This document shows, one piece after another, positions 42,645 to 46,373 of a stretch of DNA of 64,000 bases. A program made the translations under genes and the position numbers. The DNA comes from Chlamydiales bacterium (GTDB taxonomy: Bacteria; Chlamydiota; Chlamydiia; Chlamydiales; JAAKFR01): NCBI GenBank assembly GCA_020831465.1, contig JAFIGI010000059.1, positions 1,357 through 65,356 of the forward strand. The letters run 5' to 3'. The notes below the pieces were generated by a model. The model saw nothing but the letters and a program-made list of their open reading frames with translations. It had not been told where the DNA came from and did not search any database. Position 1 is the first letter of the stretch, and every line of letters starts with the position of its first letter.

Positions 42645-42716
42645 AAACTTAAGATAAGATCTTATAAAATCAAGGTGTGGAACCCAGATATATCCCTAGG
42701 TTGGCGGGTGAACGCA

Positions 42717-42748
42717 TATAGCAGAATCAGTTGAAAAATTTACATTTT
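42717..42748 (+). repeat. Dispersed repeat R (TATAGCAGAATCAGTTGAAAAATTTACATTTT)
   Basis: This exact 32-mer also occurs at 43806. A 31-nt copy is at 44173, a 24-nt copy is at 61982 (reverse complement), and 14-17-nt cores are at 29508 and 30547. Confidence 0.9.
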
Positions 42749-42775
42749 CACCGCGCAAGAATTTCCTGGCTTTCA

Positions 42776-43426
42776 TTACTCGCAAGCCCAAGGATTAATA
42801 ACCTTTAAAGTGCAATAAAAAAGATCATGAATAATCCCGGTGGCACATAATCCACGATATGCAGTTTTGTTTAGAAAAGGTAGCTTGCCCAATGTTATAA
42901 GGGAGAAAGCAGCGGCTATCAGACCAATAATACCATCGACAATACGGGTAATAACGAAAGTAATCGCCAAAAGCACATAAGTTAAGCGCGAAGCTACATG
43001 TTTTTTAAAAAAATTTTTTGATTTAAAGTAATTCTCCGCCAGATTATCAAGCTTCTCAGAAGGATAAGGAGTACAAATCCCCGGATGAACTTCATCAAAA
43101 CCTCGGATAGGAGGAAGTTTTGCAGTAGGATTCAAGGTTTTAAGGAGGTTGACATAAGGTTTTGAGACGATATCAAATGAACTCTCTAGAAAATTAAAAA
43201 AGAAATTTATAGTTTTTTTGTGTTTGCCTGCAGTAGCAAGAGCAGGAATAGCAGCACAAGCCCCTATCGCCGTATCAACGATACTAGTAATTGCTGACAC
43301 TGGAACTAAAGAGAGATAGGCTCCTCTAATTCCAAACTTTTCACTATGAGAGTCAGAGAGAGAATAATCTTTGTCAAGTTTCTGCTCGACTACATTTAGG
43401 AATTCTAGGTTTAAACTTTTGATCAT
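42776..43426 (-). CDS. Hypothetical membrane protein, family A copy 1 (two hydrophobic domains; Inc-like?)
   Basis: It is trimmed to the ATG at 43426 (MIKSLNLEFLNVVEQKL...), which has a GAGGGA RBS. It is a paralogue of 44228..44875. The hydrophobic segments are LSLVPVSAITSIVDTAIGACAAIPALATAG and LTYVLLAITFVITRIVDGIIGLIAAAFSLITLG. Confidence 0.65.
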   Translation of the reverse strand: MIKSLNLEFLNVVEQKLDKDYSLSDSHSEKFGIRGAYLSLVPVSAITSIVDTAIGACAAIPALATAGKHKKTINFFFNFLESSFDIVSKPYVNLLKTLNPTAKLPPIRGFDEVHPGICTPYPSEKLDNLAENYFKSKNFFKKHVASRLTYVLLAITFVITRIVDGIIGLIAAAFSLITLGKLPFLNKTAYRGLCATGIIHDLFYCTLKVINPWACE

Positions 43427-43555
43427 CTTCCCTCTACTTTTAACTTTTAAAGATCTTTTCGGGAAACATTGTAGCAACAAAATATTAAGATATCATCAAT
43501 AAAAAGCTGAGTTTTTGGGCGGGCACGGGAAAAGTTGGACCACTCAGAAGTTATC

Positions 43556-43810
43556 CTGGAAAGCCCTTGATGGCGAGGGTTGCTAGCTCTTCAAGCGTGG
43601 TCACCTCTTCTTCAAGGGAAAGGAGTTCTTCAGTCAAATGCCCCGTTTGCTTTTCGAAATAGGCTGCCTCTCCGCGATCGGGTGCACAAGCAGTCAGCTC
43701 TTTCTCGTGTTCCAAAGCCATTAGTTTCTCTTCCTTTAGGAAAAGGTCTTTTCGCGTTTGGGCAAAATGCGCGCTTTCTCTTCGAATTGGGTGCGCAGTT
43801 CATTGTATAG
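43556..43810 (-). pseudogene. Degenerate duplicate of the 3' end (~80 codons) of the coiled-coil gene at 45006..46373
   Basis: It aligns with 45006..45260. It carries indels (GGAAAGCCC versus AGAAGCCC; TTTTGCCCAAACG versus TTTTGTCCCAAACG) that break the frame, and the stop codon has changed to TGG. It is truncated at TATAG, where a copy of R begins. Confidence 0.8.
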
Positions 43811-43837
43811 CAGAATCAGTTGAAAAATTTACATTTT
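43806..43837 (+). repeat. Dispersed repeat R, copy at a recombination junction
   Basis: This identical 32-mer shares its first 5 nt (TATAG) with the last 5 nt of the duplicated gene fragment. Confidence 0.9.
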
Positions 43838-43904
43838 GACCTCCGCTTCTCAGATGTTGCCGATTCTGCAACCTTACTTTATTCATTTATTTTCGATTAT
43901 TGGT

Positions 43905-44035
43905 ATAAATTTGTTCCTTAAGCGATTCAATTTTTGCTTCCGCGTCCTGCATGATATTTTGGGTTTGCTCATCTTGCTCGATGATTACACGCGCTTTTTT
44001 CGCTTCAGCGACAAAATGGGCCTTTTGGGAAGTGA
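43905..44035 (-). pseudogene. Internal ~130-nt fragment of the coiled-coil gene (equivalent to 45645..45775)
   Basis: The track ORF 43887..44075 translates to ...TSQKAHFVAEAKKARVIIEQDEQTQNIMQDAEAKIESLKEQIY. This is near-identical to residues of the intact protein (LTSQKAHFVTEAKKARVIIEQDEQTQNIIQDAEAKIESLKEQIY). The flanks are unrelated. Confidence 0.8.
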
Positions 44036-44172
44036 TCCCGCAACCAGTATTGTTGATCTCAATGGGCGGGCTCATGGTCAGGGTAATCTTTATCTCGCTT
44101 CAATCGGGTTGATTCGACAACCGATTGGAACTAACCCGAACCTGCCTAGCACTGCGCAAGCTTTAAAAACAG

Positions 44173-44203
44173 TATAGCAGAATCAGTTGAAAAATTTACA
44201 TTT
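44173..44203 (+). repeat. Dispersed repeat R (31 nt)
   Basis: The sequence is TATAGCAGAATCAGTTGAAAAATTTACATTT, one T shorter than the other long copies. Confidence 0.9.
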
Positions 44204-44227
44204 CACCGCGCAAGAATTTCCTGGCTT

Positions 44228-44875
44228 TCATGACTCGCAAGTCCAAGGATTAATAACCTTTAGAGTGAAAAAAAAAAGCTCATGAATAATCCCGGTGGCA
44301 GATAATCCAAGGTATGCAGTGTTGTTTAGAAGAGGTACTTTGCCCACTGTTAAAAGGGAGAAAGCACCGGCTATCAGACCAATAATACCCTCCACAAGAC
44401 GGGTAACAACCAAAGAAATCGCGAAAAACGCATAAGTTAATCGCGAAGCTACATGTCTTTTAAAAAAATTATTTGATCCGCAGTAATTATTCCCTATCTC
44501 ATCAGACATCGAAACGAAATAGGGGGCACAAATCCCCGGATAGTTTTCGTCATAGTGTCTGTTAACTTCCGCTGTAGGGTTCAAAGTTCTAAGGAGGTTG
44601 AGGTAAGGTTTAGAGACTATAGTGAATGAACTCGCTAGAAATTGAAAAGCGAAATCTGTAGTTTTTTCGTGTTTGCCTGCAGTAGCAAGAACAGGAATAG
44701 CAGCACAAGCTCCTATCGCCGTATCAACGATACTCGTAATTGCTGACACGGGAACTAAAGAGAGATAGGCTCCTCTAATTCCAAACTTTTTACTATGAGA
44801 TTTAGAGTGAGAATAAATATCGTTAAGTTTCCCCTCCACTACATATAGAAATTTTTTGTTTAAACTTTCGATCAT
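44228..44875 (-). CDS. Hypothetical membrane protein, family A copy 2
   Basis: It is trimmed from the track ORF (..45043) to the ATG at 44875 (MIESLNKKFLYVVEGKL...), which has an AAGGAGAG RBS. The longer version would overlap the upstream gene and has no counterpart in copy 1. Confidence 0.65.
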   Translation of the reverse strand: MIESLNKKFLYVVEGKLNDIYSHSKSHSKKFGIRGAYLSLVPVSAITSIVDTAIGACAAIPVLATAGKHEKTTDFAFQFLASSFTIVSKPYLNLLRTLNPTAEVNRHYDENYPGICAPYFVSMSDEIGNNYCGSNNFFKRHVASRLTYAFFAISLVVTRLVEGIIGLIAGAFSLLTVGKVPLLNNTAYLGLSATGIIHELFFFTLKVINPWTCES

Positions 44876-45005
44876 CTTCTCTCTCCTTTTAACTTTTAAA
44901 GATCTTTGCGGGAGAAGATTGTAGCAACAAAGTATTAAGATGTCATAAATAAAAGACTGAGTTTTTGGGCGGCCACGGGAAAAGTTGGACCCCTCAGAAT
45001 TTATC

Positions 45006-46373
45006 CTAGAAGCCCTTGATGGCGAGGGTTGCGAGCTCTTCAAGATTGGTCACCTCTTCTTCAAGTGATACAAGCTCTTCGGTCAAATGCCTGGTTTCGT
45101 TTTCAAAATAGACTGTCTCTTCGCGATCGGGTGCACAAGCAGTCAGCTCTTTCTCGTGTTCCAAAGCCATTAGTTTCTCTTCCTTTAGGAAAAGGTCTTT
45201 TCGCGTTTGGGACAAAATGCGCGCTTTCTCTTCGAATTGGGTGCGCAGTTCATTGTATAGGCCCTGGAGCTGCCGGACTTTTTTGTCGTCGACTTTAATA
45301 AGAGGTGAGGCTTGAAGGGTCATCGCCTTTTCCTGAGCAAAAAGAAGGGCTTCTTTCATTCGGACTTCCGATTCAGAAAGGTCGGCAATTCTGGCCTCCA
45401 GGGCTTTTTTCTCTTCCCAATCAGCCAGTTCTGCTTCTTTTTCACTAACTGTACGATCTAACTGTTCGGTCAGCTCTTTAAGTTTGGAAGCTTTCTCATT
45501 CTCGCTCTGACTTAACTTTTCGGAGAGCTGTGCAAGCTGATCGTTTAACGCTGCATTTTCGCTTTTAAGAGTTGAAAATTCAGAAAGTTGGAAGTGCAGC
45601 TCCTCCTTCGAAAGACGAGTCTCTTCGAGCTCCTTAGAGAGCGCGTAAATCTGTTCCTTAAGCGATTCAATTTTTGCTTCCGCGTCCTGGATGATATTTT
45701 GGGTTTGCTCATCTTGCTCGATGATTACACGCGCTTTTTTCGCTTCAGTGACAAAATGGGCCTTTTGGGATGTGAGCAGCTCGATTTCGGATTGAATCAA
45801 ATGAATCTGTTTGCTCTCTTGCTCTCTCTCAATCCTACGCGCTTCCGCTTCCTCTTTAAGGCGCTGAATCTCCTCTTCGAAACTCTTTTGCTGCTCCTCC
45901 TTTTCTTGGCTCATCTGGTGAAGAAGCAACTCGGCCTGCATCAATTCATTTGTCTTGACCCGACCCATTTCGGCTGTTTGGGCAATCAGAGATTCGATCT
46001 CTTCGGTTGAGAGGAGCAAAATGAAAAAGTTCACAGCGAGTGCAAATACGACGCCCATCTGCCATAGGCGTTCTTCAAAAGGTATTTCTCCGTAATAAAA
46101 GAGAAGAAGAGCGGCTAGAGCCAAATAAGAGCCGCACAAACCAACCGTCTTCCAGCGCAAACAGAGCATCCCGCCTGCAAGAGCGAGAAAGGGGAGATAG
46201 AAGGAAAAAGGGGAAACGCATAGAAAACTCACGCCGATCGCAAAGAGAATAAGTGCGGGAGGCAGAGACCCAAAAAAGAGGACACGGCCAACGATAGTCT
46301 CCGGAAGAGCTTTAGATAGAGCTTCTTTGACAGAAAAAGTGCCTGTTGTTTCGCTTACGCTAGAGGTATTCAT
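45006..46373 (-). CDS. Membrane-anchored long coiled-coil protein (N-terminal multi-TM block plus ~330 aa E/K/Q/L-rich coiled coil; Inc-like)
   Basis: Hydrophobic segments lie within residues ~28-125 (VLFFGSLPPALILFAIGVSFLCV, LPFLALAGGMLCL, LCGSYLALAALLLFYY, MGVVFALAVNFFILLL). Continuous heptad-like sequence follows. It is the source of the two fragments at 43.6-44.0 kb. Confidence 0.7.
   Translation of the reverse strand: MNTSSVSETTGTFSVKEALSKALPETIVGRVLFFGSLPPALILFAIGVSFLCVSPFSFYLPFLALAGGMLCLRWKTVGLCGSYLALAALLLFYYGEIPFEERLWQMGVVFALAVNFFILLLSTEEIESLIAQTAEMGRVKTNELMQAELLLHQMSQEKEEQQKSFEEEIQRLKEEAEARRIEREQESKQIHLIQSEIELLTSQKAHFVTEAKKARVIIEQDEQTQNIIQDAEAKIESLKEQIYALSKELEETRLSKEELHFQLSEFSTLKSENAALNDQLAQLSEKLSQSENEKASKLKELTEQLDRTVSEKEAELADWEEKKALEARIADLSESEVRMKEALLFAQEKAMTLQASPLIKVDDKKVRQLQGLYNELRTQFEEKARILSQTRKDLFLKEEKLMALEHEKELTACAPDREETVYFENETRHLTEELVSLEEEVTNLEELATLAIKGF

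Follow-up and report, generated by a model that had tools for sequence, protein, structure and literature searches.

A TATAG-ended dispersed repeat at the joints of a mosaic Inc-like gene locus in a Chlamydiales bacterium

Gene content of the locus and of its counterparts in relatives

Within the 64,000-nucleotide stretch of DNA from an uncultured chlamydia-like bacterium that we analysed (the window), the locus between the methionine aminopeptidase gene map and an M20 peptidase gene carries two copies of a membrane-protein gene together with remnants of three further genes, and copies of a short repeat, R, stand at the joints (Table 1). The 1.1-kb segmental duplication reported in a preliminary description of this DNA is real, at about 87% identity (42717-43810 versus 44173-45260; 86.7% over 1097 columns, with indels), and its limits lie where they had been placed: both copies start at the T of a TATAG, with unrelated sequence over the preceding 30 nt (10/30 identical), and both end at CATTGTATAG, which in the intact gene encodes G-L-Y-N-E. 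Each copy carries a membrane-protein gene, A1 or A2, preceded by a predicted promoter-like site that was duplicated along with the gene (A2 counterpart at 44918-44946, by consensus scan). A1 hydropathy peaks at residues 40-64 and 144-185, and such bilobed hydrophobic domains are typical of Inc proteins, in agreement with the earlier view that these genes encode Inc-like products; a Pfam scan of A1 returned no hit and none of its 18 homologues is characterised. The two paralogues show a dN/dS of 0.88, with dS values of 0.11, 0.50 and 0.08 in successive thirds, and identity along the duplication is likewise uneven, ranging from 83% to 100%. This mosaic identity, together with the heterogeneous dS, points to repeated exchange between the copies. 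The intact neighbouring gene, CC, encodes a protein that is hydrophobic near its N-terminus (residues 26-126) and continues as a coiled coil rich in E, L, K and Q; it has homologues of 37-61% identity and is syntenic in the relatives L036 and L037.

Table 1. Features of the locus and copies of R in the window
Feature	Position	Strand	Description
map (methionine aminopeptidase)	41769..42644	+	conserved left border of variable slot
R1	42717..42763	+	core 42717-42752; then ~11 nt resembling a degenerate right arm; exact 31-mer
A1	42776..43426	-	216-aa membrane protein (ORF); two bilobed hydrophobic domains (Inc-like)
Promoter-like site of A1	43468..43496	-	ATGATA-17-TACAAT with TG; predicted, consensus scan only
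CC' 3' fragment	43551..43810	-	3' end of second CC copy, frameshifted by a 1-nt deletion near 43763
R2	43806..43841	+	first 5 nt (TATAG) common to CC' fragment; tail is genome-majority variant GACC
18-nt stretch TCCGCTTCTCAGATGTTG	43842..43859		between R2 and S fragment
S fragment	43860..43903	-	last codons and 3' flank of a paralogue of the EEP-like (Exo_endo_phos) gene
CC' internal fragment	43906..44035	-	codons ~200-243 of CC; 130 nt
GMC fragment	44036..44175	+	last ~46 codons of a gene for a GMC-family oxidoreductase
R3	44173..44208	+	tail variant and 23-nt spacer as in R1, one 1-nt deletion
A2	44228..44875	-	215-aa paralogue of A1, 70% aa identity
CC	45006..46373	-	intact, 455 aa; ORF
M20 peptidase	46720..47823	+	first gene of conserved right flank (ast operon); Pfam and synteny
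R4	61982..62005	-	24-nt copy, head plus TGAAAAATT, 7 nt past ftsH stop
R5	30550..30564	+	head only, TATAGCAGAATCAGT, within last codons of a 291-aa methyltransferase ORF
R6	29507..29521	-	head only, 1 mismatch, 2 nt past stop of AcrB-type pump gene
Degenerate R-like sequence GGTTGCGGAATCGTTTAGATTTACAAGG	9140..9171	+	just 3' of EEP-like gene 8104-9126

The remainder of the mosaic is made of gene fragments. The 3' fragment of the truncated CC copy (CC') is 92% identical to 45006-45260, rising to about 99% over its final 140 nt, and a collinear, co-oriented internal fragment is 97% identical to 45646-45775 of intact CC. Two patches previously listed as unknown can now be assigned. The first, given as 67 nt, is 64 nt long, and 43 nt of it correspond, in inverted orientation, to the 3' flank of an EEP-like (endonuclease/phosphatase-like) gene; this S fragment matches the reverse complement of 9116-9158 at 38/43 positions, includes a degenerate R-like head (CCGATTCTGCAACC), and has a depth of 8-16, equal to 2-4 copies in the sample. 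The second, of 137 nt, encodes the C-terminal end of a GMC oxidoreductase: it scores 25.2 bits with Pfam GMC_oxred_C, for which the cut-off is 24.6, and aligns with residues 486-531 of the 539 in pyranose oxidase 9fl2_A at E = 1.9e-5. This fragment is single copy in the metagenome runs, and its stop codon is the TAG within the TATAG of R3. EEP flank and GMC end each adjoin an R or R-like copy. The 18 nt that follow R2 match nothing else in the window and may be the loop of R2 or its right arm in degenerate form.

Only the source assembly gives the order in which the three R-bounded blocks follow one another, since Logan contigs (k=31) break inside R and leave block order beyond their confirmation. 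In principle the duplication, or the block order, might be the product of mis-assembly across the repeated R or across the 140 identical nucleotides, as contigs break at every R, no independent contig links the blocks, and one contig of metagenome run X3 joins 43762 to 45213, that is, A1 directly to intact CC. Such an artefact is nevertheless very hard to credit: the duplicates differ at 13% of positions and were each recovered separately in several runs (X2 42747-43538, X2 44790-45681 and X1 44202-44559), the joint between CC' and R lies inside a single contig (X4 43227-43834), the patch from the tail of R2 to the head of R3 is likewise contained within single contigs (X4 43813-44201; X1 43912-44202), and R, at only 36 nt, is below ordinary read length.

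Comparison with relatives places the mosaic in an interval of changing content. The product of map is 86% and 78% identical in amino acid sequence to those of the Peptidase_M24 genes of L036 and L037, with conserved synteny, and the flanks of the map-CC slot are syntenic in relatives at 60-91% amino acid identity. The interval itself is empty in L037 and holds a U-box effector gene and an 83-aa ORF in L036, while the slot in L034 contains an IS and a homologue of A adjoining M20. The diversification hotspot suggested earlier is borne out in that the site is a slot whose accessory or effector genes vary between lineages.

Anatomy, copy number and distribution of R

R reads TATAGCAGAATCAGTTGAAAAATTTACATTT and occurs as an exact 31-mer at 42717, 43806 and 44173, with no such match expected by chance in the window. 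In contigs of four metagenome runs its depth is 860-1430, against 4-6 for single-copy and flanking DNA, which corresponds by k-mer depth to about 180-300 copies per genome, although part of this metagenomic signal could come from a co-abundant relative; R-bearing contigs stand at the organism's own depth of 3-6. Contig depth further reveals a left edge that is sharp at the T of TATAG (42716/7 for R1) and a ragged right edge, and left flanks are unrelated among copies (agreement 0.4-0.55). In support of the preliminary description, R is a genuine dispersed repeat of mobile type whose terminus lies exactly at TATAG.

Three parts make up the element: a strongly conserved left arm of 15 nt (TATAGCAGAATCAGT), a loop of 17 nt, and a right arm, which in a subset of copies is perfect and yields a 47-nt hairpin ending in CTATA, and in most is degenerate or missing. 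The 47-nt form carries 15-nt terminal inverted repeats (TATAG...CTATA) and folds at -15.4 kcal/mol (z = -8.6); contig ends of this palindromic subfamily read ...ACATTTT ACTGATTCT(N)CTATA and then enter unique flanks at no fewer than three loci. Folding of R alone gave no hairpin in a subterminal position (z = -0.4). About 200 copies show almost no variation in left arm and loop, which are far better conserved than the right arm, an unusual pattern for a classical MITE; the 15-nt head makes up one half of a perfect palindrome of 26 nt, ACTGATTCTGC-TATA-GCAGAATCAGT. No complete copy bounded by terminal inverted repeats occurs in the window, where all six copies are one-sided and start with TATAG.

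R is not confined to the locus, which has three of these copies; the others are the 24-nt copy at 61982-62005 and the heads at 30550 and 29507-29521. R4, which contigs from each of the four runs span, lies at the edge nearest ftsH of a cluster of three DUF720 genes that has been relocated; in L036 and L037 this cluster adjoins AstB. R5 is spanned by contigs in X1-X4, and R6 is inverted relative to it, so that the TATAG ends of both face the methyltransferase segment. R usually sits at the 3' ends of genes, of which R4, R5 and R6 are further cases, and the sequence at 9140..9171 is, by its letters and by its homology to the S fragment, probably related to R. The repeat was not found in relatives with 60-90% amino acid identity and the same gene order, in GTDB species representatives or in JGI metagenomes.

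These properties bear on whether R might instead be a selected functional signal, such as an operator or a 3'-UTR or termination element, that does not transpose and is present at the joints incidentally. The palindrome would have the geometry of a protein-binding site, the copies all lie at gene 3' ends, left arm and loop hardly vary, and stop codons can be read in all three forward frames of R. We nonetheless consider this highly improbable, given that R can lie in either orientation with respect to the gene upstream of it, is missing from the syntenic relatives and collections named above, has no terminator-like hairpin when taken alone and is also found inside pseudogene debris.

Junctions of the mosaic

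The earlier statement that every novel junction falls on TATAG was too strong, as only two of six mosaic junctions lie at the R terminus (43805/6 and 44172/3, both base-exact homology breakpoints); TATAG has no part in the remaining four (about 43842, 43859/60, about 43903-6 and 44035/6). At the first of the two, truncated CC is joined to R2 at the sole TATAG of the 1368-nt CC gene (45256-45260), an outcome expected roughly once in 1000 random breaks. The second, between the GMC fragment and R3, looks like the ordinary arrangement of a gene 3' end followed by R and not like a new joint. No transposase is encoded in the window, as had been noted, among ORFs of at least 90 aa, each of which was Pfam-scanned or matched to an annotated orthologue; the sole recombinase is the housekeeping XerD (329-1321).

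One way to account for the R-terminal breakpoints is site-specific mobilisation, in which an enzyme recognising R (HUH/Y1 of the IS200/IS605 type, or another recombinase) would cut at TATAG, with the TATAG of CC as surrogate second site, and a 1089-nt TATAG-to-TATAG unit comprising R, A and the CC 3' end would be excised or copied, perhaps as a circle, and re-integrated at another R. Both duplicates do span TATAG to TATAG exactly, every R copy in the window opens with this motif, and the two inverted heads bracket the methyltransferase segment with TATAG ends inward; R1 and R3 share tail and spacer while the tail of R2 differs, as expected if an R-bearing circle entered a second R. Even so, we judge this distinctly unlikely. 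The kind of subterminal hairpin seen in IS200/IS605 is missing from R, the 64 kb contain XerD but no TnpA, TnpB or transposase, and decay of a longer duplicate accounts better for the collinear internal piece of CC. Moreover, DNA near the junction is about 99% identical although A1/A2 dS of 0.2-0.5 marks an old duplication, and a single clean event does not fit this combination.

Passive use of microhomology through slippage, template switching or end joining, with R merely a common intergenic sequence nearby and without activity of its own, fares somewhat better but is still unlikely in our estimation. The overlap is 5 nt at the joint between CC' and R2 and only 1-2 nt at that between S and CC', the short templated pieces (43, 130 and 137 nt) resemble the products of template-switch repair, and at about one R per 10-15 kb we estimate a chance of about 0.1-0.2 that a second, independent R lies within about 1 kb. 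However, two separate breakpoints fall exactly on the R terminus, the relocated gene cluster is also marked by R4, and among the three foreign scraps two, the GMC end and the EEP flank, have an R or R-like copy of their own, as expected if R itself were the shared homology or break site.

Evolution of the slot and comparison with known systems

The account that we favour, with moderate confidence, is that Inc-like genes evolve by birth and death in a hypervariable slot, with R as a mobile or recombinogenic repeat. The map-CC interval would serve this environmental chlamydia as a slot for accessory (Inc-like or effector) genes, into which its lineage would have gained the membrane-protein gene A. 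Tandem duplication of a segment running from R through A into the 3' part of neighbouring CC may then have followed, after which the upstream CC copy would have decayed into two collinear fragments. R could have contributed either by insertion that seeks TA or TATAG, or as a site where its end is cut, and also as a portable stretch of 30-36 nt whose homology would allow ectopic recombination or templated repair to carry neighbouring gene 3' ends along. We infer this order of events and the part played by R; the proposed roles would explain why two breakpoints lie exactly at its terminus and one at the only TATAG of CC.

R is a short palindromic MITE/REP-like element, present genome-wide, and we infer that it is or was mobile with TA as its target; neither a target-site duplication nor an empty site for R was demonstrated. 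An IS200/IS605-type or PATE-like nature, as first proposed, is not supported, given the z of -0.4 for R alone and the TATAG...CTATA inverted repeats. Palindrome-associated elements of the IS200/IS605 group do resemble R in a fixed pentanucleotide at one boundary, a target duplication that is not obvious and the lack of an internal transposase, but their family-defining subterminal hairpins lie at both ends, where R has terminal inverted repeats, and TnpA/TnpB are missing from the window.

The 15-nt terminal inverted repeats instead point to a MITE of the Neisseria Correia type as the closest analogue. Correia elements (CREE/NEMIS) are TATAG-ended, TA-targeting MITEs found at rearrangement points in Neisseria and beside surface-protein genes; like R, they have inverted terminal repeats, reach roughly 100-300 copies per genome, mostly adjoin genes, leave solo repeats as fragments and have no known transposase (PMC2649163). 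Their termini (TATAG[CT]GGATTAAC...) match those of R (TATAGCAGAATCAG...) at 10 of the first 13 positions by our own count, a likeness that may be due to chance. CREE differ in measuring 70-155 bp and in having repeats of 26 bp and a site for IHF, against 47 nt and 15-nt arms in full R; R is one-sided in most of its copies, the right arm being degenerate, the host phyla differ, and TA target duplication has been demonstrated for CREE only (PMC2649163). REP/BIME sequences associated with RAYT are also short (20-50 nt) and high-copy, lie downstream of genes and between convergent genes, and occur as single units or inverted pairs with a conserved tag at one end (PMC3733652), whereas the tag of R is TATAG rather than GTAG or CGTC and sits in the stem, most of its copies do not fold, and RAYT is not known here.

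The R family is new, and the mode of locus evolution is already familiar. Tandem duplication and birth-and-death of putative effectors have been documented in environmental chlamydiae (Domman et al. 2014; PMC4209131), and the present locus shares with those cases tandem paralogues of host-interaction-type genes, rapid divergence (here dN/dS of about 0.9), pseudogene remnants and lineage-specific content. Those cases concern large F-box, BTB and LRR families with no repeat element named at the breakpoints (PMC4209131), while here a two-copy family occupies one syntenic slot and carries a dispersed repeat at its joints.

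Structure and history of the mosaic locus

The locus is a real, well-delimited mosaic in a variable effector slot and is organised around R (TATAGCAGAATCAGTTGAAAAATTTACATTT), the short repeat beginning with TATAG, which occurs there as three exact copies (R1 to R3) where none is expected by chance. As laid out in the preliminary description, R1 is followed by the membrane gene A1, a truncated copy of the coiled-coil gene (CC'), R2, two spacers with a further CC' piece between them, R3, the second membrane gene A2 and the intact coiled-coil gene CC. In a self-comparison of the window, 42717-43810 aligned to 44173-45260 with 86.7% identity over 1097 columns and a CC' piece at 43906-44035 aligned to 45646-45775 with 96.9% identity. 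The duplicates are homologous from the T of TATAG onwards, and the 30 nt before it are unrelated (10/30 identical). Their homology stops at CATTGTATAG, which in intact CC encodes G-L-Y-N-E and contains the single TATAG in its 1368 nt; our coordinates therefore agree with the earlier observation that both copies begin at TATAG and end at a TATAG within these codons. The broader proposal that every novel junction falls on TATAG is overstated. Two homology breakpoints coincide exactly with an R terminus, one of them using CC's single TATAG; the border between the 137-nt spacer and R3 looks like no new joint. Simple unequal crossing-over between two R copies was rejected, as the second copy ends within intact CC with no R behind it. 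Another reading, that passive microhomology made these joints, is unlikely.

Coordinates of features at the mosaic locus and elsewhere in the window
Feature	Coordinates	Strand
XerD gene	329-1321	
Exo_endo_phos gene	8104-9126	
tandem tRNA-Leu pair	10696-10893	
R head beside the AcrB-type pump gene	29507-29521	-
methyltransferase segment	29522-30549	
second R head	30550	+
R1	42717	
A1	42776-43426	-
R2	43806	
EEP-like gene-flank scrap	43861-43903	
GMC fragment (137-nt spacer)	44036-44172	+
R3	44173	
A2	44228-44875	-
CC, intact coiled-coil gene	45006-46373	-
region of the DUF720 three-gene cluster, with R4	60006-62005	

The 67-nt and 137-nt spacers, previously described as unknown, both hold gene scraps, and apart from 18 nt (43842-43859) they were assigned to a source. 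The first contains a 43-nt scrap that is the reverse complement of 9116-9158 (38/43 identical), an interval spanning the last codons and 3' flank of the Exo_endo_phos gene; this flank includes a degenerate R-like head, and the scrap sequence has 2-4 copies in the sample. The second encodes the C-terminus (~46 residues) of a GMC-family oxidoreductase, with a Pfam GMC_oxred_C match above cut-off and a match to residues 486-531 of 539 of pyranose oxidase 9fl2 (E = 1.9e-5). Its reading frame is closed by the TAG within the TATAG of R3, so that the border with R3 looks like the usual arrangement of a gene end followed by R. No second copy at 80% identity or more was found in the four metagenome runs containing the source organism, and the fragment is probably what in-place decay has left of the gene. 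Overall, 2/3 of the foreign scraps have their own R or R-like copy.

Identity between the duplicates is uneven. R and its 23-nt spacer are 98-100% identical, the A coding region 83%, the stretch between A and CC, in which a promoter-like site is conserved, 90%, and the CC' 3' fragment ~85% over its first 120 nt and ~99% over its last 140 nt. Comparison of A1 with A2 gave a dN/dS of 0.88, with dS by successive thirds of 0.11, 0.50 and 0.08. From this mosaic identity and uneven dS we conclude that the duplication is old, with edges that were homogenised or made anew at a later time. The two CC' pieces keep the order and orientation that they have in CC and are most simply read as a decayed longer duplicate in which 385 nt were swapped for R2 and the EEP scrap. 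A two-step history, in which a 1089-nt TATAG-to-TATAG unit was copied and an R-bearing piece was then gained by R-R recombination, would leave R1 and R3 with a chromosomal tail and R2 with a foreign tail, and the R tails fit it equally well.

The k=31 Logan contigs of the four runs break inside R, so the order of the R-bounded blocks is that of the source assembly alone. Each unique block was nonetheless recovered in independent runs, and contigs of one run (X4) contain the CC'/R joint (43227-43834) and the entire patch from R2 tail to R3 head (43813-44201), which makes mis-assembly extremely unlikely. A 1375-nt contig from another run (X3) joins 43436-43762 of copy 1 to 45213-46260 of intact CC through a 48-nt identical stretch, giving A1 followed directly by intact CC; it could be a real single-A haplotype or a graph shortcut at low coverage.

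Abundance, distribution and architecture of R

The organism is present at a depth of ~4-6 in four runs of one bioreactor-metagenome study. On contigs covering R1, R2 and R3, the depth of the R core was 860-1430 versus 4-6 on both sides, a ratio that corresponds to ~180-300 copies of R per genome equivalent, and variant copies lie on dozens of contigs at the organism's own depth of 3-6. The window contains four full copies, which fits the estimated density if a genome size of 2-3 Mb is assumed; the related genome behind one of the contigs with an A homologue (L034) is 2.26 Mb. An additional nhmmer match, at 41016-41038, falls on the start of truA and seems due to chance. Another small repeat family, with ~5-10 copies, is represented by a separate 31-mer at 29577-29606, whose depth in runs X2 and X3 is 23-44.

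The left edge of R is the T of TATAG, with which all six window copies and most contig copies start; sequences further left are unrelated (consensus agreement 0.4-0.55). On the right there is no sharp edge, and copies diverge anywhere from core position 31 to 37. All copies in the window sit at gene 3' ends, in both orientations relative to the genes. R4 is a 24-nt copy located 7 nt past the ftsH stop. It lies between that stop and a small terminator-like hairpin (ACCCACTTCGGGTTTTC), and the 36 nt from its TATAG are bounded by a direct repeat, ACGTT/ACGTT (61965-62010), which was spotted post hoc and may be a 5-bp target duplication. The R head alone occurs twice more, once exactly and once, on the minus strand, with one mismatch and only 2 nt beyond the stop codon of an AcrB-type pump gene; these two 15-nt heads are inverted, with both TATAG ends pointing to the 1028-nt methyltransferase segment between them (43% G+C), which could be an insertion into a palindromic R. 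The majority variant of R carries stops in all three forward frames (TAG at 3-5, TGA at 16-18 and TGA at 32-34), so that open reading frames entering it terminate there; the GMC fragment stops at the TAG, and the methyltransferase open reading frame runs through R5, the exact one of the two heads. That R is a regulatory or other functional signal, with the joints incidental, is very unlikely; a promoter/terminator scan gave counts no higher than shuffles, and R does not qualify as a terminator.

The first 15 nt of R are half of a perfect palindrome, ACTGATTCTGC-TATA-GCAGAATCAGT. A subfamily at no fewer than three loci in the runs has terminal inverted repeats, TATAGCAGAATCAGT-17 nt-ACTGATTCT(N)CTATA, and in the complete form ...ACATTTT is followed by ACTGATTCT(N)CTATA and then unique DNA, making a 47-nt hairpin with 15-nt inverted termini that folds at -15.4 kcal/mol (z = -8.6). 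The commonest continuation is GACC(T)GCGTGAAAGC..., which contains a degraded inverted head (TGACCTGC vs GCAGAATCA), and this majority form folds weakly (-3.6 kcal/mol, z = -1.3 to -2.0). None of the six window copies has an intact right arm: each is one-sided or has a degenerate arm there. The variant seen in R1 and R3 (CACCGCG) is a minor one of ~10 copies. The 36-nt R alone folds no better than shuffled sequence on either strand (-1.4 kcal/mol, z = -0.36), and its 81-nt context gave z = -0.2 to -0.6.

These features bear on the class to which R belongs. As in TIR-type MITEs (Correia-like or IS630/Tc1-like), there are terminal inverted repeats, in the subfamily above, and many dispersed copies with unrelated flanks. 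The termini TA-TAG...CTA-TA are compatible with a TA duplication. The IS200/IS605- or PATE-like element suggested in the preliminary description did not hold up, since R lacks the imperfect subterminal hairpins, recognised by TnpA, that define this family (z = -0.36). Such elements insert 3' of a fixed tetra- or pentanucleotide with no target duplication; the TATAG with which R copies start could be a target of this sort or part of R itself. REP elements are 20-40-nt palindromes with a GTAG (or CGTC) tag at one end (PMC3733652); R was set apart from the RAYT-associated REPs by its TATAG tag and the weak fold of its majority form. A CRISPR repeat was rejected on spacings of 1089 and 367 nt and dispersed copies. 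We conclude that R is a high-copy, lineage-specific mini-palindrome that has not been described before. Repeats of the MITE/REP-like kind are known; what is new is this family and how abundant it is in a chlamydia.

Neither R nor the organism's genome turned up in the other collections searched. The exact 19-mer found four times in the window gave 30 single chance matches and no relative in GTDB species representatives, a 21-mer gave one chance match, inside a coding region, in JGI metagenome contigs, and a scan of IMG/VR gave none. Look-ups by exact protein sequence for CC, map and M20 returned no record. None of the contigs carrying EEP paralogues (L040-L042) or A homologues (L032-L035) has R, nor do the syntenic and more distant relatives examined (L036, L037 and L034). 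A literature search on the R sequence, or on MITEs in Chlamydiae, returned nothing relevant.

In the favoured reading, R would be, or have been, a mobile mini-element with inverted ends that probably targets TA, as the Correia elements of Neisseria do. It would also feed ectopic recombination and templated repair, as homology carried from place to place or as a point of breakage. Alternatively, R could be the site of a dedicated recombinase or transposase that cuts at TATAG and moves or copies adjacent cassettes from TATAG to TATAG, which would give environmental chlamydiae an integron-like shuffling and duplication of effector and Inc genes at housekeeping-gene 3' ends. We consider this rather improbable. 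As noted previously, the 64-kb window encodes no transposase, including no Y1 HUH transposase (TnpA), and its sole recombinase is the housekeeping XerD. An integron-like cassette array was rejected because there is no integrase near the locus, XerD being 41 kb off, and because R occurs in both orientations without an attC-like fold. A Xer/dif-like site, suggested by the palindrome and the XerD gene, was rejected for want of support, given ~200 copies and a resemblance over only a 7-mer.

Inc-like proteins, the map-CC slot and the DUF720 cluster

Inc proteins are marked by a bilobed hydrophobic domain of ~40-60 residues, and hydropathy agrees with the earlier view that Inc-like membrane proteins are encoded here. 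Two such domains are present in both A1 and A2 (residues ~36-67 and ~144-185), and in CC a coiled coil comes after a hydrophobic region (residues 26-126), so that all three are putative Inc proteins.

Homologues of CC led to two syntenic relatives, L036 and L037, which share with the window the order adk-MarC-MarC-truA-map-[slot]-CC-orf110-M20-aminotransferase-AstA and whose flanking proteins are 76-91% (L036) and 60-80% (L037) identical to those of the window. The slot between map and CC is empty in L037, where the two genes overlap tail to tail; in L036 (11739-12861), the closest relative, it holds an 83-aa membrane open reading frame and a glycine-rich hydrophobic U-box protein, and in the window R1-A1-CC'-R2-scraps-R3-A2. 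CC itself evolves fast, with 44-56% identity versus 60-91% for its neighbours. The slot is therefore hypervariable and of effector type, in keeping with the diversification hotspot proposed previously. In the more distant L034, an A homologue adjoins the M20 gene with an IS between them, and the ends and inverted repeats of this IS are unrelated to R. The U-box of the L036 slot protein is a eukaryote-type E3 ligase domain.

R also borders a relocated gene cluster. The three-gene DUF720 cluster lies beside ftsH in the window, where R4 marks the side of its upstream region nearest ftsH, and beside AstB in L036 (1528-3444) and L037 (551-2224); its promoter region, TTATTTGATATAATA, is conserved in all three.

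Implications for chlamydial genomes and further features of the window

To our knowledge, classical chlamydiae lack repeats almost completely. Environmental chlamydiae are known chiefly for IS elements and tandem effector families. The processes at this locus are of known kinds, namely MITE/REP-like repeats and the birth-and-death of tandem effector genes. A mini-palindrome with 200-300 copies and a Correia-like end would add a new, abundant source of genome plasticity to the phylum, and so would its presence where a duplicated Inc-like gene, a relocated DUF720 cluster and perhaps an inserted methyltransferase are joined to their surroundings. In chlamydial metagenome-assembled genomes, R would serve as a sequence handle on hotspots of rearrangement and on host-interface genes gained recently. 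For this organism, assemblies made with short k are broken, or may be wrongly joined, at ~200 sites.

The window is chlamydial in content, with ~47% G+C, an F-box-like protein, an SseC-like translocator and three genes of the Chlamydia-specific DUF720 family. An Rfam scan of the window returned only two tRNA-Leu genes and no match at the mosaic locus; they form a tandem pair with anticodons CAG and TAG, mutually 92% identical. Three secreted proteins of small size, with much Y, R, P, N and D, are encoded at 6045-7336, and two of them share a 44-nt repeat (6277-6320 and 6699-6742). They lie in a low-G+C island that additionally contains the EEP-like gene and a 428-aa orphan. Between ispH-like and S41 peptidase genes, 18462-18624 forms a near-perfect hairpin of ~165 nt (RNA fold -121 kcal/mol, z = -20); Logan contigs of the four runs end at 18445-18522 and restart at 18632, none covering it. 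This is either a long palindrome present in one copy or an artefactual hairpin that arose in the source assembly.
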